Source: a virus
Reading direction: 5' to 3' (one strand)
Virus record (IMG/VR): IMGVR_UViG_3300045988_173968
DNA length: 64,000 bases
Part shown: one piece after another, positions 470 to 13,559 of the stretch
Numbering within the stretch: position 1 is the stretch's first letter
How the letters are laid out: each line of letters begins with the position of its first letter
Position numbers and translations under genes: made by a program
The notes under the pieces: model-generated
What the model was told of the DNA's origin: nothing
The model's database searches: none
The model's input: the letters and a program-made list of their open reading frames with translations, nothing else

Positions 470-488
470 AATTAACTCCTCCTATTTA

Positions 489-766
489 TTGCAACCTGAG
501 ATATCTGTTCCAAGTTTGGATCGCCTCTTCGTCGTCTTAAGTTGGGCTTCTGGCCCAATTAAGTCGGATTTGACTTAAGTTTGACTAGCCGAGGTGTGAA
601 CTCCTGTACTGTTTATCGGACTTTGACCTAGTATATGACCTCGGGCAGCAAGCTGCCGGCTTCTCGCCTTCGCTAATCAGACTCCCTGGCGTCCTTCTTG
701 CCCTCACAATGCGTTACAGCCGGTTATACCGAGCTGCTTTAGCAGTCGCTAAAAATATCGTTGCAA
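489..766 (-). ncRNA. structured non-coding cassette A (candidate RT-associated ncRNA)
   Basis: 278 nt with no ORF. On the minus strand it starts TTGCAACGATATTTTT and ends GATATCTCAGGTTGCAA, and these ends are inverted repeats. Internal stems include CCGAGGT/ACCTCGG, TTAAGTC/GACTTAA, TTGGGC/GCCCAA and GGCAG/CTGCC. About 75 nt is homologous to cassette B2, including an identical GGTATAACCG. Confidence 0.4.
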
Positions 767-775
767 TTTTTTTAA

Positions 776-976
776 TTATTTATTTTCTGAGAAAAGCTCG
801 TCCACCGTGGAATCAAGAGCAGAAGCAATTTTCTGATAGTTCTCCAATCTGGAGCGAGTAAAGTTCTTTTCGATTTTGGAAACGGTAGCGGTACAGAGCC
901 CAACCTTGTCGGCAAGGTCTTTCATGCCGTAGCCTTTCTCCATGCGCTTCTTCATCATTTCATAATTGTGTTTCAT
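776..976 (-). CDS. XRE/Cro-CI family helix-turn-helix regulator
   Basis: GGAGG RBS 7 nt before ATG 976. Sequence MKDLADKVGLCTATVSKIEKN...ENYQKIASALDSTVDELF fits the HTH_XRE pattern. The ORF-track start at 1003 is less likely. Confidence 0.75.
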   Translation of the reverse strand: MKHNYEMMKKRMEKGYGMKDLADKVGLCTATVSKIEKNFTRSRLENYQKIASALDSTVDELFSENK

Positions 977-996
977 AGTTAATACCTCCTTAAATG

Positions 997-1025
997 TTGA
1001 CAAGTTAGCAAAAATATACTACTAT
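997..1025 (+). promoter_or_regulatory. near-consensus sigma-70-type promoter facing rightward
   Basis: TTGACA (997-1002), a 17-nt spacer, then TACTAT (1020-1025). No plus-strand gene lies downstream; a terminator hairpin follows about 35 nt later. Confidence 0.35.
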
Positions 1026-1060
1026 GGTCGTAGCACATTCTTTCTGTTTCATGGTGTGCC

Positions 1061-1090
1061 GCCGCCCTTCATGGGCGGCTCCTTTCTTTT
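1061..1090 (+). terminator. intrinsic terminator-like hairpin
   Basis: GCCGCCC-TTCAT-GGGCGGC followed by TCCTTTCTTTT on the plus strand. It overlaps the stop codon of the minus-strand gene 1089-1562. Confidence 0.4.
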
Positions 1091-1562
1091 ATTCGTCCTC
1101 TTCGGTGTAATCTACCCAATAGATAGGGAGATTGATCCAATCTTCCTCACCGTCTGCCTTAGCATAAAAGAAGCCGCCCTCGCCAGATTCTCTAACTGTG
1201 GCAACTTCTTCCTCGGTAGCTTCGCGCCAATTTCCTTCGCCAAACTCGGCATTAAGTTCATTCTCGAGACACTCTTCAGAACAATATGTAACGCAATCGT
1301 CTTCGTTGTAGTATCCCTCGTTAATTTTTTCTCCACAGCAAGCGCAGGTCGTCTTAAAAACTGGGATTGCCAGGAATGCGTCAATTTTCTTTATGGCTTT
1401 GTTCAAATCAACTCCAGTGCTCTTGATTTGAATTGTCTTACCATCTTCCGCAAGGTATGCTTCCATACCCTCGCCTATCTCATCGGCGGAATAAATAGTT
1501 TCTTTATCTTCCATACCATTGAGTTTAAGATCAATGATCAGTCTGAGTTTTCTTGAAAACAT
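1089..1562 (-). CDS. hypothetical protein with CxxC...CxxxC zinc-ribbon-like motif and acidic C-terminus
   Basis: ORF track 157 aa. GGAGG RBS upstream of the ATG. Motif CACCGEKI...YCSEEC. Confidence 0.6.
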   Translation of the reverse strand: MFSRKLRLIIDLKLNGMEDKETIYSADEIGEGMEAYLAEDGKTIQIKSTGVDLNKAIKKIDAFLAIPVFKTTCACCGEKINEGYYNEDDCVTYCSEECLENELNAEFGEGNWREATEEEVATVRESGEGGFFYAKADGEEDWINLPIYWVDYTEEDE

Positions 1563-1574
1563 TTCACATCCTCC

Positions 1575-1892
1575 TTAATTATCTAAAAGTGTTTGAAGCT
1601 CGTTTGAAAAATCATAGCCACCTGACGGATTTGACATTTCGATCAATTCCTCGATAGTGATAACTGGGTATGGCGAAAAAGTAATAAAAGTGCAAAACAT
1701 CTCAAGAAAGCCTCCGACTGCTTCTTTTATAAAATAACAATCGCCATCCCAACACATATAACATTGCAAAGATTTTTCGCCATCGTAAGCATCTACGGCA
1801 TGCTGCATTGTTGCCGCCCATTTGCCTATATCCCCGTGGAAGAACACCGCATATTCCTTGAGCAGATCCAGGTTAATATAGGGGTAATCCAT
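1575..1892 (-). CDS. small early protein, LDLL(K/R) family, degenerate shared tail (..YDFSNELQTLLDN)
   Basis: ORF track 105 aa. GGAGGG RBS. Paralog of 1905-2210 and 116-391, with N-terminus YINLDLLKEYA. Confidence 0.65.
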   Translation of the reverse strand: MDYPYINLDLLKEYAVFFHGDIGKWAATMQHAVDAYDGEKSLQCYMCWDGDCYFIKEAVGGFLEMFCTFITFSPYPVITIEELIEMSNPSGGYDFSNELQTLLDN

Positions 1893-1904
1893 ACCATTCC
1901 CTCC

Positions 1905-2210
1905 TTATATTCCAAGCAACGCTGCAAGCTGTTCGGAGAAATCTTCCTGCGGAGAAGACATCTCAACGAATTCGTCCCATGTTATTACTGGTCTGTCTTC
2001 TTCAAAATTACACAAGTTTCTGCATAACATCGTATTATGCACGATATAATACACCGCTTTATCACAATTCCATTTCATGCCGCAACTCAAGAGACCCGTA
2101 TAACAACGAACAGAGTATTTCATCGTATCGACCATGGTTCTACTCCAATGGTCAATCTTCAGAGCATATGTCCTCAACAAATCCAAATCAACATAAAGAT
2201 ATTCCGGCAT
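1905..2210 (-). CDS. small early protein, LDLLR family, degenerate shared tail (..EDFSEQLAALLGI)
   Basis: ORF track 101 aa. AGGGGG RBS. N-terminus YVDLDLLRTYA. Confidence 0.65.
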   Translation of the reverse strand: MPEYLYVDLDLLRTYALKIDHWSRTMVDTMKYSVRCYTGLLSCGMKWNCDKAVYYIVHNTMLCRNLCNFEEDRPVITWDEFVEMSSPQEDFSEQLAALLGI

Positions 2211-2212
2211 AC

Positions 2213-2455
2213 TTATACCCCCTGAATTCCAAGAATCACATATCCGTCTTTAACAAAATCCGGGTCGGACAACGCATAGCAGATACGCATTGTCACAGAC
2301 TTTCCGGTATATTCACCGTTATACTCTTTCAGAATCAGAATATCTCCCACACGGAAGTCTCTGTCGTACTTACGAACCTCAAAAGTCTTAACTCCGTTCA
2401 CTACATCTCTGTAGTACGGTGGCCAGATTTTTAATTCATGTATCTTCGGATTCAT
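2213..2455 (-). CDS. ASCH/DUF3850-like (PUA-fold) protein
   Basis: ATGA start/stop overlap with the upstream gene. IHELKIWPPYYRDVVNGVKTFEVRKYDRDFRVGDILILKEY matches my recollection of the ASCH-like pattern. The ORF-track N-terminal extension is discounted. Confidence 0.55.
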   Translation of the reverse strand: MNPKIHELKIWPPYYRDVVNGVKTFEVRKYDRDFRVGDILILKEYNGEYTGKSVTMRICYALSDPDFVKDGYVILGIQGV

Positions 2456-2721
2456 ACGGCTGCACCTCCTAACAGTGTCATAAGCTCTTCTTCGAAAGTG
2501 AAAGGCTCCTCTACTTGAACTTTTTCGAGGAATGCAGGAACAGCCCATTCGATTCTTTCCCTACCAGAGTTTTCATGAATACAGATGCGATACTCGCGGT
2601 CGCTGAAACCAATAACCTCAATAAACTCAACACAACTACTGCGCCGATATTTATCAAGTCTCCAGGGCAATCTTTGATGGTTTACGATTTGCACAACATC
2701 TCCAACTTGAAACTTTCTCAT
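2452..2721 (-). CDS. small protein with SH3/KOW-like N-terminus (KFQVGDVVQIV) and shared tail ..FTFEEELMTLLGG followed by AAV
   Basis: ORF track 89 aa. GGAGGGG RBS. Lies immediately downstream of the RT gene. Confidence 0.7.
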   Translation of the reverse strand: MRKFQVGDVVQIVNHQRLPWRLDKYRRSSCVEFIEVIGFSDREYRICIHENSGRERIEWAVPAFLEKVQVEEPFTFEEELMTLLGGAAV

Positions 2722-2733
2722 ATACTCCCCTCC

Positions 2734-3882
2734 TTACGCAGCAACATCGTCTGCCATCATCTTGATGACATCGCAATGATACTTTTTGTTGTACCAAGAG
2801 ATCACATAATCAAAATACTCAGGTTCCACATTGCTATAATAAGAAAGCTTGCCACGCAGAGTCATTACTTCTTCCGGCGGCCAGCCCTTACCATCTTTTC
2901 TTGCAACTATGTAGTTATTCAGCATTGCCTTGAACACCTTTTTATTCTCGTGTCCAACAGTGATTTTGTTGTCTTTGTTGATCATCAAACCAAGACACCA
3001 GTTTCGACCTGCTCTGCTGCCGTAATGTGTTTTTTCTTTCTTAATGGTGTATGGCGCATCGAACTTCTTAAATACATCGTTCATCATCTCGATGACGCCC
3101 ATGAACAAGAAACCTTTCTTGGAAGAAACCGTAGCATCATCGGCGTAACGAGTGTAGACAAAATCGTTAGTCTCGCTGGCTCTCAATCGTCGAGAGATTT
3201 CATGGTCGATGGGAATCATAATGACATTAGTAAGAAGCGGAGAAATCGGAGTTCCCTGCGGCAGTCCACCATCGAGGAAACAGAGAGAGATAGCATCTCG
3301 TAGCGCTTTCTCGCCATCCTCATATTTAACAACCTCGCAGAAAGGATAAATCACGGATAACATCCGCATTGTGAATTCCAGCGTAGTCGAACCAAAGAAA
3401 TTGCTCAAGTCCGTCTTGAGGTACCAATTACTGTTGTTTCTTTGATGTACTTTCAGCGCATCAGTAGTGCTTCTGCCCTTGATGTACGCAAAAGCAGCCG
3501 TATGATATAGAACCTTAAAATCATTCTCGAAGATTGCCTTGAGACTATACAGAGCTTGTTTCAGTTCGTCATCCGGCGCATCGATCTGACGCCAACCGCC
3601 GGATTTCTTTGGAATTTTGAAAGAATTATAATGTTCTCGCATGTTGTTCGCATCAAATTTCGGCTGGTAAGTACGATTAAAACTCTTCAGCTTCCCGATA
3701 AGATACGGTGCTCGCGCCATTTCTTTTAGCTCCTGGGGGAGCTTTTTGTATTCGTAGGTTCTTGTGGATGTCCCGAAGTCCACTCCGTTAATATACGGGC
3801 TGAGATTTTTCACACCAAAGAGAACATCCTCAAGGGTAAGTTGCTTCTTTGCTCTTGTCATAAATGTGGTTACATATGGCAT
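2734..3882 (-). CDS. reverse transcriptase, retron-like/DRT-like, RT domain only
   Basis: 382 aa. AAGGAG RBS. Motifs: RQIDAPDDELKQALYSL, AYIKGRSTTDALKVH, LKTDLSNFF, GLPQGTPISPLLTN, YTRYADDATVSS. No maturase or endonuclease domain was recognised. Confidence 0.9.
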   Translation of the reverse strand: MPYVTTFMTRAKKQLTLEDVLFGVKNLSPYINGVDFGTSTRTYEYKKLPQELKEMARAPYLIGKLKSFNRTYQPKFDANNMREHYNSFKIPKKSGGWRQIDAPDDELKQALYSLKAIFENDFKVLYHTAAFAYIKGRSTTDALKVHQRNNSNWYLKTDLSNFFGSTTLEFTMRMLSVIYPFCEVVKYEDGEKALRDAISLCFLDGGLPQGTPISPLLTNVIMIPIDHEISRRLRASETNDFVYTRYADDATVSSKKGFLFMGVIEMMNDVFKKFDAPYTIKKEKTHYGSRAGRNWCLGLMINKDNKITVGHENKKVFKAMLNNYIVARKDGKGWPPEEVMTLRGKLSYYSNVEPEYFDYVISWYNKKYHCDVIKMMADDVAA

Positions 3883-3908
3883 ATAAAAACTCCTTTCTTT
3901 TGTGTCGA

Positions 3909-4175
3909 TAAAACAGTCTAAAACACTTTCCTGATGACGCTGGAGGCGCCTGAAGACTCGCTGTTCTGCTAGTTACGGCTTCTAGTGACGGCGTTCTAGA
4001 TGAAATAAGGCCATCTTGAGTGCAGCTTTCTAATGGTTTGAACCATTATTTGCCAGAAAAGATGATTCGAGCTCGCCAGTCGCTCCTGGATCAGCTCCGG
4101 CGTGCCTCTTGTCTGTGACTATGCGTACCATTCGGTTATACCAAAATGCGCTCAATGAGCTATAACACTGTTTTA
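3909..4175 (-). ncRNA. structured non-coding cassette B2, immediately upstream of the RT gene (candidate cognate ncRNA)
   Basis: No ORF. A 9-nt terminal inverted repeat reads TAAAACAGT (5') and ACTGTTTTA (3') on the minus strand. Homologous to cassette A over about 75 nt. Occupies the position of msr-msd in retrons. Confidence 0.45.
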
Positions 4176-4178
4176 CTT

Positions 4179-4479
4179 TTGCAACCTGAGATGTGTGCGA
4201 TGATCAGCTACTGAGCTCTGGAGACCGGCTCCTCGAGTTTACTGCTGTATTATGTTTGTCTTTACCGTGCGTTGGTTTCTGGATAAGCGGTGGATGTTAG
4301 CAGTTTTGCTTTCGCAGTTAACCTATATCTGTCTTGGTTAACGATGATGTTCCACTTCACCTCGCCTACGCCAGGTACCTGCAGGCTTCCTTCGTGGTAT
4401 CCCGTTCCTTTTCGCTGGCAATTCAGTACATTCGCTTAAAACGAAATGCTTTGTTTTGAAAACAAAAATATCGTTGCAA
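4179..4479 (-). ncRNA. structured non-coding cassette B1
   Basis: 301 nt with no ORF. Its boundary sequences are identical to those of cassette A (TTGCAACGATATTTTT ... ATCTCAGGTTGCAA), but the interior is unrelated. Confidence 0.35.
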
Positions 4480-4488
4480 AAAAATCAT

Positions 4489-5172
4489 TTAATAGGTATC
4501 AATGGCAAAATTAAAAGCGTCCACCAGAATAATCTTCTTAAGGACACCTTTATTTACAAAGTTTACGAAGTTGGAAACCCCAAAAGAAACGATAGTCCAA
4601 ATCGTTCCCGCAACTGAAAGAGATACATTGCAGGCAGATACAGGAGTTGCCGCTCTTGCTTCCTCCTCGGTAAACTCCATAGAGCGAAGCAGATTGTCCT
4701 GCATCTTAGGATCAGACCAGTTGGCTGCGTAGTGTTGAGCATCAGTAAGCCGTGTCCGGAAATCAAAGACAGCTTTGATGTTCATGTTTGTTGCGTTTTC
4801 CTTGACGATTCTCCGCCGAAGCTCAATGCTATCTACGCAGAGGAAAACATAGCCGCTCAGACGCTGCTTGTCATATCCCTTATCGAAGATTTTCAGCTCT
4901 GAATCGATATCTGGATTGATTTTATGAAGCATTTCGGCAACCGCCGCAGTCTTGGGCTTGCCAATATCCTCAGTCGTAAACATCTGATTGGCAAGGTTAT
5001 GTGCCTCAACGACATCGAAGTCGTAAAGAGAAATGTTCGTCAGCCCCAATCGGGCCAAACAAACCGCCAAAGTAGAACCGACGCTGCCACAGCCGATAAT
5101 ATGGATGCGGGTCTTCGCACACTTGTCTGGATTAAAGAACTCGAAGCTCTTTGACAAATCCATCATCTGCAT
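4489..5172 (-). CDS. ThiF/MoeB/E1-like adenylyltransferase-fold protein
   Basis: 227 aa. GGAGG RBS. Rossmann motif IHIIGCGSVGS, DFDVVEAHNLANQ, GKPK, LCVDS. No catalytic-Cys domain is visible. Confidence 0.8.
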   Translation of the reverse strand: MQMMDLSKSFEFFNPDKCAKTRIHIIGCGSVGSTLAVCLARLGLTNISLYDFDVVEAHNLANQMFTTEDIGKPKTAAVAEMLHKINPDIDSELKIFDKGYDKQRLSGYVFLCVDSIELRRRIVKENATNMNIKAVFDFRTRLTDAQHYAANWSDPKMQDNLLRSMEFTEEEARAATPVSACNVSLSVAGTIWTIVSFGVSNFVNFVNKGVLKKIILVDAFNFAIDTY

Positions 5173-6058
5173 ATTCCTCCTCTAAGTCAATATCTTCGGT
5201 AATTCCACCGCCTATAACCTCAGCTTTTACCGAGTTTTTGGTTTTGGAATAATCCTCACTTTCGTTTTTTTTATCCTGTTTCTTACCGTAGTTGCCATAC
5301 GGATAATCATAGTCGTCCCAAAAATCTTCCCATCGACTACCGCATCCTCCGTAACCACCATATCCGTAGTCATATGTGCCACTCTTTTTAGAGCTATTGT
5401 AAGCACCTGTACCATGATAGGTATATGTCTTTGCCTTTACGAGTTTTTTGGACTCCTCCAGGAACTCACCGTTATCGAACTCAATAGAGACATCTATATC
5501 TCCATTCTCATAAAGCACATTGTTAGCGAGGTCGTAAATCTTAGCATTGTGCTCGTTCTTTTTATTCCAAATCACAAACACCCAAAATGTATCAGGTGAG
5601 CTATTCCCTACCCTGGTTGCCTGGTCAGTGAGATCAGTACCACTCGGGCTTGTCCCCATATTTACATGGCTGTGACCTTGGAAACGGATACGGTTGTAGT
5701 CCTCATCGGGGATTTTCTCGAGAAAAGCTCTGTGCTCATCCTCATCCGTGTCCACATTCACACCAGTAACGACTTGCGGGTACACAAAAACATCTGAGAT
5801 TTTGAAGCCGGCATCACCCACTCTGTCTACATATCCATACCATGCTACCTCAGAGTCAAAATTGTTGACCAAAGTAATCATCTTGGAATAGGCTTCGGGG
5901 GTGAAAATAATCTTCGCTTTACCCGTCTTCTCGCTTTTGAACTCCTTGGTGTATGTAAACTTGCCACCCTCGAAGCTCTTAGCGGATGAGATCTTCTCCG
6001 TGAATTCTCGAATCATTTCCGCAATTGTCTCTTTGGGAATGTTAATCATTTTAGCCAT
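5132..6058 (-). CDS. JAB/MPN (JAMM) metallopeptidase with Tyr/Gly-rich low-complexity C-terminal region
   Basis: 308 aa. EVAWYG ... HSHVNMGTSPSGTD gives E...HxHx7Sx2D. Overlaps the E1-like gene by 41 nt and the upstream gene by 8 nt. Confidence 0.8.
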   Translation of the reverse strand: MAKMINIPKETIAEMIREFTEKISSAKSFEGGKFTYTKEFKSEKTGKAKIIFTPEAYSKMITLVNNFDSEVAWYGYVDRVGDAGFKISDVFVYPQVVTGVNVDTDEDEHRAFLEKIPDEDYNRIRFQGHSHVNMGTSPSGTDLTDQATRVGNSSPDTFWVFVIWNKKNEHNAKIYDLANNVLYENGDIDVSIEFDNGEFLEESKKLVKAKTYTYHGTGAYNSSKKSGTYDYGYGGYGGCGSRWEDFWDDYDYPYGNYGKKQDKKNESEDYSKTKNSVKAEVIGGGITEDIDLEEEYADDGFVKELRVL

Positions 6059-7403
6059 TCTTCAACACCTCCATAGCTTCTTTCACGGTATGCACCGAAC
6101 CATCCTCGAACTCAATGAAACGCTCATTAGAAGAGCAGATCTTTTCAATGAAATTGGCGCCAACCGTCGAGTCATCAAAGTTGATATTGTGAGTAGAACC
6201 AATAGCCTGTTCAACTGCCCCAAGGTAATTTCTCTCACCCATCATACGATCAATGATTCGAGCATTACCACCCATGCAATGGAAACCGCAGAGATGAGGG
6301 TGAGGCAGATAAGTCTTGAGCTCTGCCAGATTTGTCTCTCTTTTATCTGGTCTCAAGGTACCAGCAACATCCAAGACAAAATGTGCCCAGGTGCGAATCT
6401 TGAATTTCGGATTCTCCCCAAAGACGCTATCCAAGAACAGCTTCATATCATTTTTGGACTTGATGTTCTTCCGCTCGCCATAGTTGCCATAAAAATAGCT
6501 GTATTCGTTATTGAGGCAACGCTCGAAGCTATCCTCATCAAAAGAGTCCAAATAACCCTTGACATAAAAGGAGATAAGCTCTTCGTCCGCATCTTCCAGG
6601 ATGAGATCCTTGCACCGGAGAAAGAACTTGAGAAATTCCCCTTCGTTGCCATCATTACGGCGAATTTTTTCTTCAAGAGCCGCAATTTGCAGGGTGTTAA
6701 AATGGTCTTTGTCGTAAAGGTCATCGAGCTGCCGAAGAAGATTCTCTATGTTGCTCTTAATTCTCGTGTATTCACTTTTCATTCGCTCCAACGAACTCTT
6801 CTCGAATTTCACATCAATGTCACTGAGAGCAGAGCGGATGAACATCTCACGCAGGTCAAGACGGTCATACAGTTTCTGAGATGAATCAGCAAACATATTT
6901 TCATCATTGCGAGAAATCGATTTCACGAGATCAAGCTCGTCGTTGTCGAGAGGCTTGCCCGCAAAGGTCGCAGGGAAGAGCTTCTGCACAATGCAAGCCA
7001 ACATACGACCAAATGACGAATCGAGCTTTTCGCTGTAGATGATGGAACGATTATTGTTTTCATCAATAAATGCCCAACCGACATCTTTTTGTTTGGAAAC
7101 GAAAAGACTTACCGGCTCATTCTGCTTGTAGCCAGCCGCAATAATGTCGGATTTATTCTCGCCAAGCCAAGACAAAGCGTTTTCACCGGAAATCAAATAG
7201 ACCGTGTTCCGCTCAGTTGGAATTGCATAATTGCTTTTTGCAATTTGGAGGTTGTATGTATTTTCCTTATCTCTGGGGTAGACCAGTGCTCTCAAGACAT
7301 GAGAATAACACTCCTCTCCGCCGATTGGTGTTACTGGGATATTGGTGCAAATCGTAGAAAACTTGTTGTCCGTAAATGTTGTGTTGCGAATACTTCGAAT
7401 CAT
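6051..7403 (-). CDS. hypothetical 450-aa protein, first gene of the JAB/E1 operon
   Basis: Long clean ORF, translationally coupled to the JAB gene. Has a central coiled-coil-like region and a C-terminal PHPHLCGFHCMGG motif. Function unknown. Confidence 0.7.
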   Translation of the reverse strand: MIRSIRNTTFTDNKFSTICTNIPVTPIGGEECYSHVLRALVYPRDKENTYNLQIAKSNYAIPTERNTVYLISGENALSWLGENKSDIIAAGYKQNEPVSLFVSKQKDVGWAFIDENNNRSIIYSEKLDSSFGRMLACIVQKLFPATFAGKPLDNDELDLVKSISRNDENMFADSSQKLYDRLDLREMFIRSALSDIDVKFEKSSLERMKSEYTRIKSNIENLLRQLDDLYDKDHFNTLQIAALEEKIRRNDGNEGEFLKFFLRCKDLILEDADEELISFYVKGYLDSFDEDSFERCLNNEYSYFYGNYGERKNIKSKNDMKLFLDSVFGENPKFKIRTWAHFVLDVAGTLRPDKRETNLAELKTYLPHPHLCGFHCMGGNARIIDRMMGERNYLGAVEQAIGSTHNINFDDSTVGANFIEKICSSNERFIEFEDGSVHTVKEAMEVLKNG

Positions 7404-7436
7404 TTTACATTTCTCCTTTATATTTTATTTTATGAA

Positions 7437-7512
7437 TGGAGCTGGCGGACGGACTTGAACCCCCGACCTGATGCTTACAAAACATCTGCTCTACCAACTG
7501 AGCTACGCCAGC
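7437..7512 (-). tRNA. tRNA-Thr (anticodon UGU), CCA encoded
   Basis: Hand-folded cloverleaf: GCTGGCG/CGCCAGC acceptor, GCTC/GAGC D stem, anticodon loop TTTGTAA, T arm GGGGG-TTCAAGT-CCGTC. Confidence 0.85.
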
Positions 7513-7531
7513 AATGGTAACTAATTTGTGA

Positions 7532-8053
7532 TTAGGTTCCTTTGCGTGAAAGACGGCACGCAACAAATAAACCAATTGACATCACTATGGTATCCATCAC
7601 CGCTGCGACCATATTTTTCGGAATCTTTACTGCAAGGGGGATAGAAAAGAGCAAGCATTCGACAGCTGTTTTAACAACGCCGACGCCAAGTAAAACTGCC
7701 ACACCGGTTATTGCAATGTTTGACCCACACAAACTATCATTTTTCTGGTAGGCTTTCCCACAAATGATCCCAATCAGAACATTGCCAAGCATCCAACCAA
7801 GTGGAAACCAACCCGAAGAAAGCAAGCTTACGACAGTACACCCCGCACCGCCTACAATCGCGCCGCCAAGCATCCCGAACCTCATACAGCAAACCGCAAG
7901 CACTATATACCCAAGGTCAAGCGAAATATGGCCAATGCCAATCGGTATTTTGAGCACCATACTTACGACAACATACAGTGCAATACAAAGTGCAATTTGG
8001 CATATCCACATAGTGTTTTTTCTTATAGAATTTTCTTTAGTTGGTTTATTCAT
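7532..8053 (-). CDS. polytopic membrane protein, ECF-transporter S-component-like
   Basis: 173 aa with 5-6 hydrophobic helices rich in small residues (GGAIVGGAG, GWMLGNVLIGIICG). The family call is from pattern memory only. Confidence 0.45.
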   Translation of the reverse strand: MNKPTKENSIRKNTMWICQIALCIALYVVVSMVLKIPIGIGHISLDLGYIVLAVCCMRFGMLGGAIVGGAGCTVVSLLSSGWFPLGWMLGNVLIGIICGKAYQKNDSLCGSNIAITGVAVLLGVGVVKTAVECLLFSIPLAVKIPKNMVAAVMDTIVMSIGLFVACRLSRKGT

Positions 8054-8399
8054 CAGTCGATTCTCCTTTCAACTTTTTACTGTCTACATATACCTCTATT
8101 GCCCTGTGATGCGCAAACTGCTCAAGAAGTTCGTCAAAAGATACACCATTCACTTTTGCGTCCACTTTCATTGCAGAAAATTGATCTTTATATTTCTTAA
8201 CCATGCTCTCTAAAGCGAGAAAATGTTCTTTGTCTTTCGGATAAAAAGCGATATCCTCAATGCAAACTTTGCTGATATCTTTTTCGTGGTAAATCGCTCT
8301 CAAACAATTTTTACATGGTTCATCCTCCGGCGATAATGAGAAGTTAATGCAATCACCGCAATAGACGGTAACTCCATTCACCTTAATTGGCTTTACCAT
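8046..8399 (-). CDS. hypothetical protein with CxxC...CxxC zinc ribbon
   Basis: 117 aa. AGGGGG RBS. Motif YCGDC...CKNC. Contains an internal VSFDELLEQF that resembles the shared tail. Confidence 0.6.
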   Translation of the reverse strand: MVKPIKVNGVTVYCGDCINFSLSPEDEPCKNCLRAIYHEKDISKVCIEDIAFYPKDKEHFLALESMVKKYKDQFSAMKVDAKVNGVSFDELLEQFAHHRAIEVYVDSKKLKGESTDE

Positions 8400-8423
8400 T
8401 AAAAATACCCCCTAAATTTTTAT

Positions 8424-8498
8424 TGGAGCTGAAGCCCAGACTTGAACTGGGAACCTGCGCTTTACGAGTGCGCCACTCTACCTTTGAGTTACTTCAGC
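8424..8498 (-). tRNA. tRNA-Thr (anticodon CGU), CCA encoded
   Basis: Hand-folded: acceptor GCTGAAG/CTTCAGC, anticodon loop CTCGTAA, T arm CCCAG-TTCAAGT-CTGGG. One A-A mismatch at the base of the anticodon stem. Confidence 0.75.
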
Positions 8499-8532
8499 AT
8501 ATTGCCCCTCCGAAGAGGGGCATGAGGTATTA

Positions 8533-8760
8533 TCAGGCGTTGGAGGTCTTCGCAATGCAGGACAGGCGGCAGGACTCAGTAATGCCGTAGGAGGCAAAGG
8601 ACTTGTCCATCTCACCGGCACGCAACGGAGTACCATCCAGCGCGGGGGTGGCGGTAGAATAATCTACATTGTTCTCATCGAGAACCTCTCGAATGGTCTT
8701 CTCAGCGTCTACGAGCAGAGTCTTACGATCCATGTTGTTAGTCAGAGTAATGCTTACCAT
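8533..8760 (-). CDS. 75-aa protein, possible ubiquitin-like beta-grasp fold (no C-terminal GG)
   Basis: AAGGAG RBS. Its size and the pattern MVSITL..KTLLVDAEKTIREVL...ALDGTPL...DKSFASYGI resemble small Ubl/ThiS-type proteins. This is inference only. Confidence 0.4.
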   Translation of the reverse strand: MVSITLTNNMDRKTLLVDAEKTIREVLDENNVDYSTATPALDGTPLRAGEMDKSFASYGITESCRLSCIAKTSNA

Positions 8761-8859
8761 AATTTTTTCTCCTTTGTTATGTAAATTTAATTTTTAGGGA
8801 CATAGTTGCGCCCCGCAGCGGTTAGCCACGGGGCTTGATTGTACTGTGCTGTTTACGGC

Positions 8860-9255
8860 TTACTGGACATCGATGGCAGCCTGAACGGAAGCAACCTCAG
8901 CCTCGATCTCGGTGAGAGTAGTACCAAGAGTCTCCTCCAGAGCATTCATCTTCAGGATGATGGCACCGAACTTGTCCTCAGCGTAGGTTTTAGCCTCGGC
9001 GGCAGACATACCGGTGGGGATCATCTCGGTGTAGGTCGCGTAGCCATTCTCGTCGTGAGAAGCGCTTACGAACACAACGCCATTCTTATTGGCGCTGGCA
9101 GTCTTAGTGCCAACATCAATGCTGAAAACGGGGTTCTTTTCTTTGTCGCGCAGAACCAGAGCATCGGGACGATACTTCTTAGTCTTACGCAGGGTCTCCA
9201 GCTTCAGGCCGGAAGTGAGTACGAGTGCGTCTCCATGGATAGTGATCTTAGTCAT
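8860..9255 (-). CDS. hypothetical 131-aa protein
   Basis: AAAGGAG RBS before ATG 9255 (MTKITIHGDALVL...). The ORF-track start at 9285 is less likely. Confidence 0.6.
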   Translation of the reverse strand: MTKITIHGDALVLTSGLKLETLRKTKKYRPDALVLRDKEKNPVFSIDVGTKTASANKNGVVFVSASHDENGYATYTEMIPTGMSAAEAKTYAEDKFGAIILKMNALEETLGTTLTEIEAEVASVQAAIDVQ

Positions 9256-9317
9256 AGTTTGACTCCTTTCGCCCATTTTGGGCATTAAAATTATTTATGT
9301 ATAACCCTGTCTGGGTT

Positions 9318-9605
9318 TTACAACGAAAGTATGTTCGAGAGCTGGTCAAAAAAATCTTCGTATGCAATTTCAGGCTCTATGCAGTCAACATAAAAACGGC
9401 GGTTGATTTCCTTCGCTCCAGGGATATCACAACTCCATAAGCCTTCAAGATTGTGATTATCGAACATGATCGAAACACAATTCGACTTACATACTTCAAC
9501 AACCTCACCAGCCTCTCCAATGAAATGACTTTCATCTAATCCGCTGTGTGGGTTTTTCTTAACAACAACCACTCTGTCGCCTACTTTGAATTTTGCCATT
9601 ATCAT
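9318..9605 (-). CDS. small protein with SH3/KOW-like N-terminus (KFKVGDRVVVV) and degenerate tail ..YEDFFDQLSNILSL
   Basis: ORF track 95 aa. ATGA-type coupling with the upstream gene. Confidence 0.65.
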   Translation of the reverse strand: MIMAKFKVGDRVVVVKKNPHSGLDESHFIGEAGEVVEVCKSNCVSIMFDNHNLEGLWSCDIPGAKEINRRFYVDCIEPEIAYEDFFDQLSNILSL

Positions 9606-9829
9606 TCACCTCCAAATAATTTTAGTAATTCTTTCTCGAATGTTGGTTGTTCTTCCTCTGGCAAAAGGATAAGTTCATCCTTTGCAATTTCGTCTGCGGT
9701 CGGCATATAACAGTCTGCAGAATATGCAAATGTCCCTTCACACCTATTCTTACACGCCAAGTAATCGCAATTGTCAGGGTTGGCTGTTTCATTCTGACGG
9801 AATAGACAAAATTCATAAAAACAGTCCAT
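9602..9829 (-). CDS. Cys-rich small protein with shared tail ..PTFEKELLKLFGG followed by E
   Basis: ORF track 75 aa. TAATG overlap with the upstream small membrane ORF. Confidence 0.65.
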   Translation of the reverse strand: MDCFYEFCLFRQNETANPDNCDYLACKNRCEGTFAYSADCYMPTADEIAKDELILLPEEEQPTFEKELLKLFGGE

Positions 9830-9963
9830 TACTCAAGCTCCTCTTTCATTTTTTCATACAATTCGCTAAACCGCTTGCTCCACTTCCTTAGCCCGAAGAA
9901 AAAGCATACGCCCAGCACAATCCACAGACCGCTGGCGATGTTTATTAATAGATTATCCATCAT
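9829..9963 (-). CDS. small single-pass membrane protein (44 aa)
   Basis: MMDNLLINIASGLWIVLGVCFFFGLRKWSKRF... Start overlaps the stop of 9960-10307 and its stop overlaps the next ATG. Below the ORF-track cutoff. Confidence 0.4.
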   Translation of the reverse strand: MMDNLLINIASGLWIVLGVCFFFGLRKWSKRFSELYEKMKEELE

Positions 9964-10307
9964 TCTACCTCCTGCATCCAAAATTTACGACGGCAATCAG
10001 AGCATATCCGGTTTGAACAATTTCCGTATCTATCCCGACAATCAGCAGAAATGAGTTTTGGGCATAGCATCAAGCGCCCACATTTGTCAATTTCCGCCTC
10101 TGGATACTGTTCAAGAAACACGCTCTGCCTCGTCTTGCGTGGATGTGCAGCAGACCATTCCTCGACTATAGCAATCTGATCCGTAGCGTCCAGCGTTGAT
10201 ATGGTGGAAACCCCACAACCACCATTAGAAGCTGGGCACCCAGTACATTTATCACCAAAACTCTCGCACATCCTGTTGCGTTCCTCAATAAATTTTACAA
10301 CATCCAT
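9960..10307 (-). CDS. Cys-rich hypothetical protein
   Basis: GGAGG RBS 8 nt before ATG 10307 (MDVVKFIEERNRMC...). Multiple CxxC/CxxxxC clusters. Confidence 0.6.
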   Translation of the reverse strand: MDVVKFIEERNRMCESFGDKCTGCPASNGGCGVSTISTLDATDQIAIVEEWSAAHPRKTRQSVFLEQYPEAEIDKCGRLMLCPKLISADCRDRYGNCSNRICSDCRRKFWMQEVE

Positions 10308-10445
10308 TGAATTTTCCTCCATTTGCACCCGTCGCACGCGCCATTATGTGCGTGTTTGTACTTCCCGCAGTATTGTCATAACTCGTTGATAAGCGCCTTG
10401 CGGTCTGACGCCAGCTACATTGAACTTTATCTCCCATAGAAAATT

Positions 10446-10751
10446 TCATTCGGTACTCCCTCCCAATAATTTAAGAAGTTCGTCCTCAAAGGATTCTATT
10501 GGAGCAACTAACCGGATCTCATTTTCAAGAACCCAGCGGCAATTAGGATTATAAGCGTCAAGCTCCCAAGTGGACTCATAGGCATCCTCGAATGAGATGC
10601 AAAATTTTGCATTCAATATTCCATTAACATTTTCCGGTTCATTGAAATTAACATCAATAACAGTTCCAACAGCGCCAATTAAATCGTCACACGCATAATC
10701 GTCGTATGCAATATTCTCAACAATTTCTACATTATCGCCTACTGAAAACAT
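10446..10751 (-). CDS. small protein with SH3/KOW-like N-terminus (FSVGDNVEIV) and shared tail ..ESFEDELLKLLGG followed by STE
   Basis: ORF track 101 aa. AAGGAGG RBS. Confidence 0.7.
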   Translation of the reverse strand: MFSVGDNVEIVENIAYDDYACDDLIGAVGTVIDVNFNEPENVNGILNAKFCISFEDAYESTWELDAYNPNCRWVLENEIRLVAPIESFEDELLKLLGGSTE

Positions 10752-10814
10752 CTTCTTACCTCCTTTTCAAAAGTGGGGTTCTTCCCAGTCATGCACCCCT
10801 CGACTGCTTATTTG

Positions 10815-10849
10815 AAAGGAAAGGAGAAACACCATGAACAAGATGGTGT
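10815..10849 (-). terminator. intrinsic terminator closing the tRNA/ncRNA array
   Basis: On the minus strand: ACACCAT-CTTGTTC-ATGGTGT followed by TTCTCCTTTCCTTTC. Confidence 0.5.
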
Positions 10850-10990
10850 TGGGGGAAGGCTTGGGATTTGAACCCAACAATGCCTTTCGGCAACCTTCCG
10901 TATAGAGGCGGCTGTTGCACGCTGCGCACACGCATCGAAACCGCTAATCAGGGACTGTGCAAGCACCATCCCTTGGAAGGCAAACCCTTT
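10850..10990 (-). ncRNA. structured RNA ending in a 50-nt tRNA-like minihelix (acceptor stem, T arm, CCA) but lacking D and anticodon arms
   Basis: 3' module at 10850-10899: GGAAGGT/GCCTTCC acceptor, TGCC-GAAA-GGCA hairpin, TTGGG-TTCAAAT-CCCAA T arm, then C-CCA. Upstream hairpins include GGGA..GTGC-TT-GCAC..TCCC. A second CCTTCC copy upstream can pair alternatively with GGAAGG. Confidence 0.4.
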
Positions 10991-11016
10991 GACGCAACAT
11001 TTAATTCTCACTTACT

Positions 11017-11103
11017 TGGCGGAGAGGATGGGATTCGAACCCATGGCTCTGACGAGTCACCGGTTTTCAAGACCGGCTCCTTAAACCGCTCGGACACCTC
11101 TCC
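11017..11103 (-). tRNA. tRNA-Ser (anticodon UGA), long variable arm, CCA encoded
   Basis: Acceptor GGAGAGG/CCTCTCC, anticodon arm CCGGT-CTTGAAA-ACCGG, T arm ATGGG-TTCGAAT-CCCAT. Confidence 0.85.
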
Positions 11104-11560
11104 AGGTCTAGCTGGTTTTCTTGTTTCTCTCAAACCAGCAAAGCATCTATCTACGCAAGTTCAAACCGTAGCCATTGGATGAACTTTTTCTCGACCCGCA
11201 GGGTTAGATGCTTTACCCCGCTTGAACATTTTCGCAGTCCCTAGCGCCTCACCACAAAGTCTTTACTCTGTGGAGAGGTCTGAGCGTTAGGCAAGCTGTG
11301 TACACTATTGGCCAATTTATGCCATGCAATTAGCACTCGCCCTGCGGAATCGTACCGCACCCTCATAAACCGTACAGTATTAAGAATGGCCATTCCTACC
11401 CTCGGTGGTTTATGATTCGAACCTCGCTTTGCTGTACTGATGTAGTAATACGACTCGTGCCATCCAGCAGTTCACACGAGAAGTGTGGGTTGAAGATTTT
11501 TAATCGACCTTTTAGCTAGCTCTCACTTCTTGGATTAGCGCGACCCACAAATTGATATTT
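11104..11560 (-). ncRNA. large (about 455 nt) non-coding, hairpin-rich RNA candidate embedded in the tRNA array
   Basis: No credible ORF on either strand. Bounded directly by tRNA-Ser and a tRNA-like gene on the same strand. Many local stems, for example GCGG-TACGATT-CCGC and GTGGGT...ACCCAC. Confidence 0.4.
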
Positions 11561-11629
11561 TGGTTTCGGGTGGACTTGAACCACCGACGCACTGGCTCCC
11601 AGCTGCTCTACCTCCTGAGCTACGAAACC
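11561..11629 (-). ncRNA. tRNA-like gene with truncated anticodon arm (5-bp stem closed by a 3-nt GAG loop)
   Basis: Normal acceptor (GGTTTCG/CGAAACC), D arm (GCTC-AGGAGGTA-GAGC) and T arm (GGTGG-TTCAAGT-CCACC). The anticodon arm is GCTGG-GAG-CCAGT. Total 69 nt, no CCA encoded. Confidence 0.55.
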
Positions 11630-11744
11630 ATATTTAATTGGACAGTCTTTCTGAATCTAGTGTGCGCATTGCGCCTTCATCTCTCTCCGCAACTGTCCGG
11701 GATGCGTCAAATCCATCCGCGTGGCTGTCCCGGGAACAGCTAAT

Positions 11745-11820
11745 TGGTACGCCATCAGGGATTCGAACCCCGAACTAGCCGGATATAAGCCGGATACTCT
11801 GACCGTTGAGTTAATGGCGC
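11745..11820 (-). tRNA. tRNA-Ile (anticodon UAU), CCA encoded
   Basis: Acceptor GCGCCAT/ATGGCGT, anticodon loop CTTATAT, T arm CGGGG-TTCGAAT-CCCTG. One mismatch at the 27-43 pair. Confidence 0.75.
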
Positions 11821-11846
11821 ATTTAAGCAGGCAAGCCTTGGCACCT

Positions 11847-12359
11847 CTAAACGAGGTGCCGCCTGTTGGTTCGATATGTATTGATTTCTTCTTGAAGCTC
11901 GTCCATGATGTCGGTAAGGATCTCCACATAGTTTTCATCTTGGCAGTAGCGATAAGCCACATCTTCAAGTTTCGAACCTGTGTACTTCCAGGAATCTGGA
12001 TTGTTGTATTCCAACAGCCCTTCCGCAATGAACCAGATACATTCTTCAACGGAGTCGAACGACCGGAAACTGCCATCATATTGACGCCAACCTCCGATGT
12101 TATTTTTCTCCTTGAAGTAGGTTGATGTTCCCCATCCGCTCTCCAATCCGAATTTTGCAAGTAAGTACAGCGGGTTTATTCCGTAATACTTCCCTGTTTC
12201 GAGGATTGTCCAAGCATATGGGGACAGCCCTTCTCGAAGATTTGTCAGTACATACTCGAATTCTTCCAATGTGTAGTCCGTTTCATCGGTAAAGACTTCG
12301 TACCCATACGCCGGAACTACTATCAGAAGCGCTAAGAGGATTGCAATGATTTTACGCAT
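11847..12359 (-). CDS. secreted GH73-type N-acetylglucosaminidase-like peptidoglycan hydrolase
   Basis: 170 aa. Signal peptide MRKIIAILLALLIVVPAYG. LAKFGLESGWGTS...NNIGGW matches the glucosaminidase pattern. It is the only gene here that ends at TAG (11847-11849); a TAA follows 7 codons later at 11823-11825. Confidence 0.65.
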   Translation of the reverse strand: MRKIIAILLALLIVVPAYGYEVFTDETDYTLEEFEYVLTNLREGLSPYAWTILETGKYYGINPLYLLAKFGLESGWGTSTYFKEKNNIGGWRQYDGSFRSFDSVEECIWFIAEGLLEYNNPDSWKYTGSKLEDVAYRYCQDENYVEILTDIMDELQEEINTYRTNRRHLV

Positions 12360-12391
12360 TTAATACCTCCTGAATTTTTGCCCTTGCGGGC

Positions 12392-12468
12392 TGGTCGGGA
12401 TGACAGGATTTGAACCTGCGACCTCGTACTCCCAAGGCACGCGCTCTACCAAGCTGAGCCACATCCCG
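12392..12468 (-). tRNA. tRNA-Pro (anticodon UGG), CCA encoded
   Basis: CGGGATG/CATCCCG acceptor, anticodon arm CGTGC-CTTGGGA-GTACG, T arm GCAGG-TTCAAAT-CCTGT. Confidence 0.85.
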
Positions 12469-12639
12469 ATAAAGAAAGAGCCTGCGGTTTTTCTACGCCA
12501 CAGGCTCTTCCACAGAAAGGGGGCGATGCACATCCCTGCATCTGGGGCTCTTTTTCCGGCTTGCATTTCGCAAGTCGCCTCTCGCACGAGCAGTGCTAAG
12601 GTTATCTCGAAAGGAGGTGCGGGGGAATGACGACCCCCG

Positions 12640-12726
12640 TGGTGCCGCTGGCGGGATTTGAACCCGCACGATGTTTCCATCGAGGGATTTTAAGTCCCTT
12701 TCGTCTGCCAATTCCGTCACAGCGGC
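12640..12726 (-). tRNA. tRNA-Leu (anticodon UAA), long variable arm, CCA encoded
   Basis: GCCGCTG/CAGCGGC acceptor, anticodon arm AGGGA-CTTAAAA-TCCCT, variable arm TCGATGGAAACATCGT, T arm GCGGG-TTCAAAT-CCCGC. Confidence 0.85.
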
Positions 12727-12729
12727 ATT

Positions 12730-13194
12730 TTAATCATCTCTTCTTGCGCACTTCCCATCAACAAAGTGATAATCTCCAGCATATGCACAATCAGCACAAT
12801 CGTTTGTCTCGTCACCGCCGAGAGGGCAAAGAAGATTCATAAGCTCATCCTCGAAATAGAATTTTTGTTTTAACTCCGGTCGATATTTCATAATGAAATC
12901 ATCAACAGGGATTACATACCATCCATCGTAAAGTTCAGTTTTCTGATAATATTCCAAGTAACAAAACGAACCCCACTTAAGGCTTCCATTTTGCATCACA
13001 AGGATAGCAACTGTATCACTGCTCATTCGACCGAATTGCTTCCCTATTGCCTCAATGTCACTCTTTGGGAAAACTCTGACTTCATGATCTTCAGACCAGT
13101 CATCTGGGCTCAAAACTCCGTCGAAGATTTCTACAAATTCCTCAACCGTAGTCTCTCGATTAAAGTAGACGAGGAGCTTCTTTTCAATTTCCAT
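12730..13194 (-). CDS. early protein with shared tail ..FYFEDELMNLLCPLGG followed by a 27-aa Cys-rich extension
   Basis: ORF track 154 aa. Paralog of the 13196 and 13560 genes. Post-GG peptide is DETNDCADCAYAGDYHFVDGKCARRDD. Confidence 0.7.
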   Translation of the reverse strand: MEIEKKLLVYFNRETTVEEFVEIFDGVLSPDDWSEDHEVRVFPKSDIEAIGKQFGRMSSDTVAILVMQNGSLKWGSFCYLEYYQKTELYDGWYVIPVDDFIMKYRPELKQKFYFEDELMNLLCPLGGDETNDCADCAYAGDYHFVDGKCARRDD

Positions 13195-13195
13195 T

Positions 13196-13558
13196 TCATC
13201 CTCCTATCAGTGCCATTAGTTCATCCTCAAAGATTATTGGTTCCCGTAGGTCGGGGCGAAAAACATCAATGAATTCATCGATAGTATAGACAGGCGCTCT
13301 TTCATAGCCGTGCTCCTTATACCAAGACAGAGAGCAATAACCTTCCCATTTGATGGGATCATCATCTGAAACAATAAGAGATATAGTATCATCCTCTCTT
13401 CCAGAATCAAGAATATTTCGAGCCACTACGGAATGTATATCGACTGCGAAGAACTTTTTCGTGCCATTTCTATCATAAACTTCTGACATCGCATCGAAGA
13501 ATTCCGATTCTGTCATCTGTCTATCGAAGTGAACGAGAATTAACCCAGTTTTATCCAT
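13196..13558 (-). CDS. early protein ending exactly in the shared tail ..PIIFEDELMALIGG
   Basis: ORF track 120 aa. Tandem paralog of its neighbours. Confidence 0.7.
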   Translation of the reverse strand: MDKTGLILVHFDRQMTESEFFDAMSEVYDRNGTKKFFAVDIHSVVARNILDSGREDDTISLIVSDDDPIKWEGYCSLSWYKEHGYERAPVYTIDEFIDVFRPDLREPIIFEDELMALIGG

Positions 13559-13559
13559 T

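Follow-up and report, generated by a model that had tools for sequence, protein, structure and literature searches.

The 64,000-nucleotide viral sequence IMGVR_UViG_3300045988_173968 from IMG/VR (hereafter the window, meaning the whole stretch analysed) belongs to a tailed phage, with a large terminase (30694-32400), a portal (32417-33922), a tape measure protein (57151-61920) and an exonuclease, and its accessory region is a minus-strand arm that runs from position 1 to about 19000 and holds six or seven tRNA genes. Within this arm we describe a cassette in which a ubiquitin-like protein (Ubl, here p75), a small partner protein (p141), a 450-residue protein (p450), a JAMM peptidase (JAB) and an E1-like adenylating enzyme (E1) precede structured non-coding RNA (ncRNA) units and a retron-type reverse transcriptase (RT) on the same strand (Table 1). 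An original prediction, made from the letters of the window and its open reading frames (ORFs), had singled out the first five of these genes, and all five ORFs are present where it had placed them on the minus strand. The overlaps it had described between p450 and JAB (8 nt, 6051-6058) and between JAB and E1 (41 nt, 5132-5172) are also correct, and constitute predicted translational coupling of the three genes. We found that the unit extends beyond this operon, with E1 followed by a 606-nt structured non-coding gap (3883-4488) and then by the RT. Megablast of positions 4400-9300 against 50,697 phage records returned zero matches.

Table 1 Coordinates of the cassette and of neighbouring features in the window
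Feature	Position	Strand	Description
p141/p131	8860-9255 (131 aa) or from 9285 (141 aa)	minus	small alpha/beta protein, Ubl partner
p75	8533-8760	minus	75 aa, ubiquitin-like beta-grasp, flexible C-terminal tail K-T-S-N-A
Insertion	7437-8498	minus	tRNA-Thr 8424-8498, 117-aa ORF 8046-8399, ECF-transporter S component 7532-8053, tRNA-Thr 7437-7512
p450	6051-7403	minus	450 aa, two domains, central helix of ~54 residues
JAB	5132-6058	minus	308 aa, JAMM/MPN+ metallopeptidase
E1	4489-5172	minus	227 aa, minimal ThiF-family adenylating enzyme
ncRNA unit 1	4177-4481	minus	a1 TTTTGCAAC 4473-4481, unpaired G 4472, G 4186, a2 GTTGCAAAA 4177-4185
ncRNA unit 2	3909-4175	minus	a1 TAAAACAGT 4167-4175, unpaired G 4166, G 3918, a2 ACTGTTTTA 3909-3917
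Retron-type RT	2734-3882	minus	382 aa; YADD, QGTPISP
GG-tailed proteins	116-391, 1905-2210, 2452-2721, 9602-9829, 10446-10751, 13196-13558, 13560-13910	minus	
GG-tail variants	1575-1892, 9318-9605, 12730-13194	minus	

Inheritance of the cassette as a block

Relatives of the cassette were assessed in 80 IMG/VR loci retrieved with a JAB profile and searched with iterated hidden Markov models for all six proteins. The full collinear, same-strand set of p141, Ubl, p450, JAB, E1, ncRNA and RT was present in about 70 of the 80 loci, and p450, JAB, E1 and RT occurred in kept order and strand in 79 loci in total, with JAB identities as low as about 30%. Each of three distant JAB homologs (34-38% identity) stood in a series of proteins of ~130 aa, ~75 aa and ~480-513 aa, JAB, ThiF, a gap of ~300 nt and an RT of ~380 aa, and independent sampling that started from distant p450 homologs led to the same cassette again. 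p141, p75, p450 and RT were missing, all four together, from the most distant JAB-E1 pairs only. These results show, at the level of sequence, that many phage lineages of gut Clostridia have inherited the cassette as one block. The suggestion that p75 and the 131-aa gene belong with the three-gene operon, from which they are separated in the window, was borne out by their position next to p450 in about 70 related loci and by their fusion to each other in 8 lineages.

What separates these two genes from p450 in the window, namely a tRNA-Thr pair, the S component of an energy-coupling factor (ECF) transporter (Pfam 1.3e-11) and the 117-aa ORF, is a polymorphic insertion outside the cassette. The stretch between p75 and p450 measures 1129 nt in the window, 1527 nt in locus L001 and 222 nt in L006 and L013, which lack the insertion; all of these belong to one phage species. 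In other lineages the spacing is 40-250 nt. The S component is of the folate/riboflavin family and sits between the two tRNA-Thr genes.

Relatives were found in viral contigs of 40-150 kb and in metagenome-assembled genomes of Oscillospiraceae, Ruminococcus, Lachnospiraceae, Roseburia and Defluviitaleaceae. Some p75 clusters occurred on more than 1000 contigs, a number of them up to 1.3 Mb long, including contigs named as Faecalibacterium prausnitzii, Ruminococcus bromii and Anaerostipes hadrus, which points to temperate phages of gut Clostridia, and one cassette locus adjoins an integrase and resolvases. In three independent phage lineages, NAD+ salvage genes lie beside the cassette (L009 2236-7370; L011 18468-20930; L111 10678-13148), encoding NAMPT/NAPRTase, a phosphoribosyltransferase resembling phosphoribosyl pyrophosphate synthetase, an isochorismatase/nicotinamidase-like protein, NAD synthase and NMNAT. 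NAD+ salvage is a phage counter-defence function, and its placement suggests that the cassette and these neighbours form a shared accessory or anti-defence island.

The sister group of phage JAB-E1 loci, which carry neither RT nor p450, p75 or p141 (L077, L080-L083, L086-L088, L090 and L092; for example L081 4921-9875), has conserved, uncharacterised neighbours of its own, with proteins of 432-584 aa, 439-452 aa and 73-74 aa. The 439-aa protein of these loci showed no detectable relation to p450, and the group may represent a further Ubl-type system not yet described.

Retron-type reverse transcriptase and its non-coding RNA

The RT had its top NCBIfam match in the retron St85 RT (2.8e-54; 184 bits, cutoff 235) and matched the PADLOC retron model RT_II-A at 1e-51, which places retron scores well ahead of those for group II RT (74.6 bits) and for defence-associated reverse transcriptase models. 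YADD was present in 59 of 74 sequences of the RT family and QGxxxSP in 64 of 74. Retron RTs are distinguished by region X, with the motif NAXXH in which H is most conserved, and region Y, with the motif VTG in which G is most conserved (Mestre et al. 2020, PMC7736814). The window RT has a region-X-like D-A-L-K-V-H and a region-Y-like C-L-G-L-M-I-N, and the family consensus reads D-A-[LV]-x-x-H in region X, with the H conserved, and x-L-G in region Y, with the G conserved.

The gap between E1 and RT is about 270-330 nt long in most lineages, and related loci hold one or two non-coding units of ~250-330 nt each; tandem units were found in the window and in L049, with two apiece. Each unit ends in an 8-13-bp inverted repeat, whose covarying arms (a1 and a2) form 15 distinct pairs across lineages, and all 18 of the 18 catalogued units have an invariant G after a1 and an invariant G before a2, with a short covarying hairpin after the a1-G. 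RNAalifold closes unit 1 of the window with a 9-bp a1/a2 stem, and the minimum free energy z-scores were -2.27 for unit 1 and -1.54 for unit 2. The gap sequence was conserved within lineages only (nhmmer). Of 28 gap sequences examined, about 22-24 contain the terminal-repeat element. In loci whose E1 and RT abut, such as L066 and L061, a similarly built unit is found between p75 and p450, and the element therefore stays with the cassette even when moved. Retron ncRNAs are defined by hybridising terminal inverted repeats, a conserved branching G and one to three msr hairpins (PMC7736814), and the predicted architecture of the units is that of this msr-msd definition.

Phages with 97-98% identical proteins differ little in their ncRNA units, apart from two fully replaced patches with indels, patch 1 at ~4200-4245 (unit 1) and patch 2 at ~4045-4090 (unit 2). 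All variants kept a stable fold in the domain of patch 2 (z -1.6 to -3.3), patch 1 gave no significant hairpin or structure signal, and the patches may be rapidly evolving msd or specificity regions. Other sources of an RT next to a non-coding repeat were rejected. A diversity-generating retroelement (DGR), which pairs a template repeat upstream of its RT with a near-identical variable region in a target gene, was dismissed on the grounds that no copy of the gap sequence, and hence no variable region, occurs elsewhere in the 64-kb window, and that the RT has QGxxxSP; a group II intron was dismissed on the grounds that no Rfam intron RNA was found and that the maturase model scored 74.6 bits against a cutoff of 300.

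A predicted ubiquitin-like protein and its enzymes

The fold of p75, which the original prediction had proposed to be Ubl-like from its size and pattern, was assessed with an AlphaFold2 (AF2) model built on a 17-sequence alignment (predicted local distance difference test, pLDDT, 84.9). The predicted fold is a beta-grasp with the topology b-b-a-b-b-3(10)-b plus a tail (tail pLDDT 57). Foldseek against the PDB gave 99 matches at E<=1e-3, and all 50 of those listed were ubiquitin or Ubl proteins, including ubiquitin, NEDD8, SUMO, FAT10, ISG15, TtuB and archaeal ubiquitin; 49 of these 50 had probability 1.00, and most TM-scores lay in the range 0.57-0.73.

As had been noted from the sequence, p75 lacks a terminal GG and its last residues are N-A. 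Across 50 non-redundant members of the Ubl family, the C-terminus reads K-x-[DS]-[NSGC]-[AG], followed either by 0-4 variable residues or by a fused p141; tails include DNA, DNA-R, DNA-GQ, DNA-TGMN, DSA-F, DCA, NGG-F, DGG-CC and DGG-RQ, and true GG was found in just 4 of about 50 variants. In the 8 lineages with p75-p141 fusions the junction lies at the identical residue, with ..K-x-x-N-A before it and A-x-[IV]-x-[IV]-x-G after it in seven lineages, and G-A before it and T-I-R-V after it in L078. Past the junction, the fusions continue with the residue at which mature stand-alone p141 begins. Such tail extensions and fusions have the appearance of the classical Ubl-precursor pattern, and a conserved tail that is followed by extra residues or by p141 implies that the JAB peptidase processes the Ubl. 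That JAB peptidases release Ubl domains from extensions and fusions has been argued by Iyer et al. (2006, PMC1779556).

The partner p141 is a small alpha/beta protein with a C-terminal helix, no invariant residues and no conserved Cys, and both p75 and p141 share 29-43% identity with their positional counterparts in distant cassettes. Since homologs start with MAKITI, the 131-aa version (Met at 9255) is probably the true gene. p141 had zero matches in Pfam, NCBIfam, PHROGs, PADLOC and a PDB profile search, and p450 and p75 had zero matches in PHROGs, Pfam, NCBIfam and PADLOC. Tandem p141-p75 pairs were observed upstream of a single p450-JAB-E1-RT set in L053 (4641-6190) and in L062, L063, L064 and L073 (4372-6029), and the doubled Ubls of these loci are two paralogues with slightly different tails (DSA-M, DSA-F).

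The assignment of JAB to the JAMM peptidases was upheld by its motif residues, with E70, H129-S-H131, seven residues, S139, two residues and D142 invariant in 39 homologs (31-63% identity); about 170 JAB homologs were found. The JAB family profile aligns to Rpn11 over the MPN core (E=0.044), and PADLOC models of the CBASS/Cap3 type match JAB at E=6e-4. The Pfam Prok-JAB match is weak (E=0.038), and JAB therefore belongs to a divergent subfamily. We regard it as a predicted Ubl-processing enzyme that is possibly deconjugating. Its C-terminal tail (residues ~205-308; 5132-5440) is highly variable and of low complexity in the window and in homologs, first rich in G/Y/S/N and then rich in K. Low-complexity tails of this kind often bind nucleic acid or drive self-association, and the tail may bear on a link to multicopy single-stranded DNA (msDNA).

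E1 matched Pfam ThiF PF00899 with 84.4 bits against a cutoff of 28.1 (9e-24), in agreement with the original prediction, and the motifs by which it had been recognised (HIIGCGSVGS and DFD.VE..N..NQ) are conserved in 61 non-redundant cassette E1 sequences together with the CVD aspartate and the Cys in TPVSAC (invariant Cys181), such that the ATP loop, the Mg-binding Asp and one Cys are kept. PDB matches (Uba1, MccB, ThiF, MoeB, Cap2 and Uba5) covered residues 15-93 only. The top NCBIfam match was ThiF PRK08644 (87 bits, cutoff 159), and E1 scored 68 bits with the 6A-MBL cap2_3 model (cutoff 320) and 4.6e-11 with the SAMP E1 model. Membership in a specific cofactor family (ThiF, MoeB, TcdA, MccB) was not indicated, with scores far under curated cutoffs and covering the N-terminal half only. 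The usual partners of cofactor-biosynthesis enzymes were found in no locus, with ThiG, ThiH, MoaE, rhodanese and cysteine desulfurase absent from the cassette and from three neighbourhoods of distant homologs. None of the three outcomes named beforehand as counting against the original prediction was observed, as E1 fits no cofactor family with its normal partners, the JAB motif residues are conserved and p75 is a predicted beta-grasp.

p450, which is always directly upstream of JAB, belongs to a family with at least 1321 cluster representatives (50% identity clusters) at E<=1e-3 in an exhaustive HMMER search, and a word-indexed search returned close relatives only. P144, H370 and C376 are invariant in a 60-sequence alignment, in which the most conserved block reads Y-x-P-N-P-H-I-x-x-Y-x-C-L-G. 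The segment PHPHLCGFHC, which had drawn attention earlier as vaguely similar to an E2 active site, lies within this block, as do H370 and C376. At the level of the motif, the spacing from Asn to Cys equals that of HPN..C, and the order of secondary structure elements in residues 256-424 resembles that of the ubiquitin-conjugating (UBC) fold. The E2-like site itself was not supported: hhalign of the p450 C-terminal domain against four canonical E2 sequences gave 0.2% probability and aligned only the 15-residue motif, and a control domain did no worse. The AF2 model of p450 is confident (pLDDT 93), Foldseek against the PDB gave a best E of 0.5 with no E2 among the 50 matches listed, and the sole match in BFVD was an uncharacterised phage member of the family. 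The p450 profile gave coiled-coil noise only against the PDB. An E2 fold was rejected for now, with Foldseek against the PDB and hhalign both null, and p450 is a candidate thioester carrier or ligase.

Comparison with known systems

Retrons have been classified into 13 types, among which none carries ubiquitin, ThiF or JAB and none of these is mentioned (Mestre et al. 2020, PMC7736814). Like a retron, the cassette has an RT whose closest matches are retron RTs, immediately preceded on that strand by an ncRNA whose ends pair as inverted repeats, with an unpaired G beside the stem and short hairpins beyond it. Co-inherited accessory genes and carriage by prophages, common among retrons, are further points in common. 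It differs in that the accessory module consists of five genes that include a Ubl, an E1 and a JAMM peptidase, and in that the ncRNA is long (250-330 nt), sometimes tandem and sometimes inside the accessory operon, with msDNA only predicted.

Similarities with known Ubl systems were each partial. Bil operons and the 'row 6d' operons of Iyer 2006 (Ubl, E1, E2, JAB and an alpha-helical protein) have in common with the cassette a stand-alone Ubl, a separate E1, a separate JAB, a large extra protein and a context of conflict, whereas the cassette has no recognisable E2, a Ubl tail of N-A or S-A instead of G, an RT with ncRNA, and a phage as its carrier, and neither p450 nor p141 matches anything known at the level of sequence. 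Membership was rejected in the absence of an E2 with the UBC fold, as judged by the listed Foldseek matches of p450, its hhalign probability of 0.2% and the lack of a conserved Cys in p141. In type II CBASS (cyclic-oligonucleotide-based antiphage signalling system), the resemblance lies in the E1 core and JAB, whose best matches in defence databases are Cap2-type E1-E2 and Cap3-type JAB models, and CBASS offers a known case in which an E1 drives the conjugation of a C-terminus other than GG. Unlike type II CBASS, the cassette has neither a CD-NTase (cGAS/DncV-like nucleotidyltransferase) nor an effector, its E1 is not fused to E2, and a true beta-grasp Ubl is present; type II CBASS was rejected on the coverage of the PADLOC E1-E2 models, which was limited to E1 residues 16-94 and to about 75 residues of the Cap2 models, and on the lack of a CD-NTase in the cassette. 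The small beta-grasp Ubl, single ThiF-type E1 and JAMM protease without E2 or E3 are found also in archaeal SAMP/UbaA and in Thermus TtuB/TtuC, but those Ubls end in GG, double as sulfur carriers and belong to chromosomal housekeeping without RT, p450 or p141.

The original prediction had likened the gene sizes to the PRTRC cassette (TIGR03734-03742), which combines ThiF-family, JAB-like and similar-sized small proteins on mobile elements. This resemblance was not supported: PRTRC_ThiF scored 33.8 bits against a cutoff of 144.75, PRTRC models A-F missed the other four proteins (E<=0.1), and the cassette, unlike PRTRC, has no ParB-related gene. PRTRC models also gave zero matches in the sister JAB-E1 loci. 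In open-access full-text literature we found no paper that links an RT to E1, JAB and Ubl genes, though such a system is possibly described elsewhere, and two leads, on Desulfovibrio prophages (PMC12724379) and on F. prausnitzii phages (PMC5883640), were rejected as both concern DGRs. The comparisons set the cassette apart from PRTRC, CBASS, Bil, cofactor families and DGRs, as a putative retron with a Ubl-conjugation accessory module.

Interpretation and alternative explanations

Our preferred interpretation, to which we assign a probability of about one half, is that a phage or prophage here carries a retron with a compact Ubl conjugation system as its accessory module, and that this system acts in phage-host or phage-phage conflict. 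In the mechanism proposed, the Ubl would be made as a precursor, with either a short C-terminal extension or a fused p141, and the JAMM peptidase would cut after the conserved [NSGC]-[AG] dipeptide. Because the p75 gene already ends in N-A, no trimming would be needed in this phage, where the peptidase may act as a deconjugase. E1 would adenylate the exposed Ubl carboxylate with ATP and probably load the Ubl on Cys181, and the Ubl would be passed to lysines of target proteins, directly or via Cys376/His370 of p450. Alternatively, E1 alone could carry out conjugation, as is the case in archaeal SAMP and Thermus TtuB. With the unpaired G beside the a1/a2 stem as the priming site, the RT would reverse-transcribe a portion of the ncRNA into msDNA; in retrons, msDNA is linked 2'-5' to the branching G. 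The resulting RT-msDNA complex would then be a sensor or regulator that gates the accessory module, as in other retrons, and gating or targeting of the accessory module by msDNA has been proposed for retrons generally (PMC7736814).

A tighter association, in which reverse transcription and Ubl conjugation are coupled in one machine, is conceivable and we hold it only tentatively. The msDNA-RT complex would in that case license E1 and p450 to tag a viral or host protein on infection, or the Ubl would be attached to the RT or msDNA itself.

Several observations weigh against a retron with a Ubl-conjugation module. The cassette is known from sequences, alignments and predicted structures alone, from which msDNA, JAB cleavage, adenylation, thioester and conjugate are all inferred. 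Within the predicted Ubl module there is no recognisable E2 or E3, a carrier role for p450 draws solely on its invariant Cys/His pair, and a tail that is mostly N-A or S-A and not G-G is unusual among E1 substrates. On the retron side, the RT scores under the curated cutoff of every named retron family and its region X is one residue longer than NAXXH, the folding z-scores of the ncRNA are modest (-2.27 and -1.54), 4 of the 28 examined gaps yielded no terminal-repeat element, Rfam had no match for the ncRNA of the E1-RT gap, and the distance between E1 and RT ranges from 0 to 5.8 kb. As to the direction of conflict, the NAD+ salvage neighbours in three loci would fit a counter-defence role equally well.

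This variable spacing, along with the extra genes that are sometimes inserted and the exchangeability of retron modules (PMC7736814), would be expected if a stand-alone retron merely sat beside an unrelated Ubl/E1/JAB operon in a shared hotspot, with no coupling between the two. We consider such independence unlikely, given that order and strand are kept in 79 loci at JAB identities down to about 30%, that the ncRNA unit lies inside the Ubl operon, between p75 and p450, in some lineages, that JAB-E1 pairs without the RT are also without p141, p75 and p450, and that no p450 cassette without an RT was seen on sufficiently long contigs. Sulfur-carrier or small-molecule chemistry, with E1 and Ubl acting like ThiF/ThiS, MoeB/MoaD or MccB to yield a thiocarboxylate or an adenylated or modified peptide or nucleic acid, could account for the best NCBIfam match of E1 (PRK08644, 87 bits), for MccB, ThiF and MoeB among its top PDB matches, for the lack of an E2 and for a Ubl tail that is not GG. 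It appears highly unlikely, as the cofactor-family scores are far under their cutoffs (87 vs 159 bits) and cover the ATP-binding half only, no ThiG, ThiH, MoaE, rhodanese or cysteine desulfurase partner was found, carriers of this type end in GG while the cassette Ubls tolerate N-A, S-A, C-A and G-G, and the best fold matches of p75 are to ubiquitin proper. Least probable of all is the suggestion, made in the original prediction, that the enzymes are the core of a system serving a set of GG-tailed small proteins, with E1 activating the tails and JAB trimming extensions. The window has at least seven such proteins around the cassette, some with short extensions after GG as expected of precursors, but the tails were found in 8 of 93 sequences examined, all from this one phage lineage and 97-98% identical in p450, whereas cassette loci elsewhere have no GG-tailed proteins and the cassette has a conserved Ubl of its own.

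Conflict between viruses, or between virus and host, is the most likely biological role, and the computed results do not separate the direction of that conflict. To our knowledge, the retrons and the bacterial E1/JAB/Ubl operons characterised so far are all antiviral and on the side of the host or prophage, and for this reason we lean to prophage-encoded exclusion of competing phages, by analogy, with counter-defence a close second. In the latter case, the phage would use the cassette in lytic growth to disarm host immunity, either by Ubl-tagging of host defences or by JAB stripping Bil-type conjugates from virions, and the RT product could be a decoy or regulator. Consistent with counter-defence are the location of the cassette among tRNAs on an accessory arm in large phage genomes (contigs of 40-150 kb), the NAD+ salvage genes, with their anti-defence role, in three independent loci, and the very wide distribution of the p450 family (at least 1321 cluster representatives), a hint that phages benefit from it directly. 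We regard it as possible, albeit somewhat doubtful, against the host- or prophage-side function of the characterised systems and the presence of relatives on contigs of up to 1.3 Mb (prophages) and by integrases, where exclusion systems are typical.

Retrons and bacterial Ubl systems are much-studied immune families that have been treated as separate, and the cassette joins both in one co-inherited unit. If their coupling is real, the cassette would represent a new type of retron, in which the accessory module is enzymatic and not a toxin, a minimal Ubl system of E1 plus peptidase whose tail is not GG, and a large protein family (p450) with an invariant Cys/His pair. It would further constitute a new and widespread class of phage conflict systems in the human gut virome, with p450 as a new thioester-carrier fold that replaces E2. 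The natural Ubl-p141 fusions would be ready-made substrates for JAB, and retron-based DNA production might profit from the tandem ncRNAs.

Other features of the accessory arm

The GG-tailed proteins of the window number at least seven, are otherwise dissimilar, small and encoded on the minus strand (116-13922), and share the C-terminal motif F-E-[DE]-E-L-x-x-L-[LI]-G-G. Some tails carry 2-5 extra residues (GGAAV, GGE, GGSTE), one protein has the motif internally (..LLCPLGGDETND..), and additional copies were found in L001 (17287-17900). The tail resembles a double-glycine leader or Ubl tail in a C-terminal position, and could act as a common signal for docking, processing or targeting.

Among the tRNA genes of the arm, Rfam gave a sub-threshold match over the full-length model to RAGATH-36 RNA at 11221-11362 on the minus strand (55.5 bits, gathering score 70, E=4.6e-9). 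A tRNA-like element at 11561-11629 on the same strand (Rfam, 50.8 bits) was not reported by ARAGORN, and would make the seventh tRNA gene of the arm.

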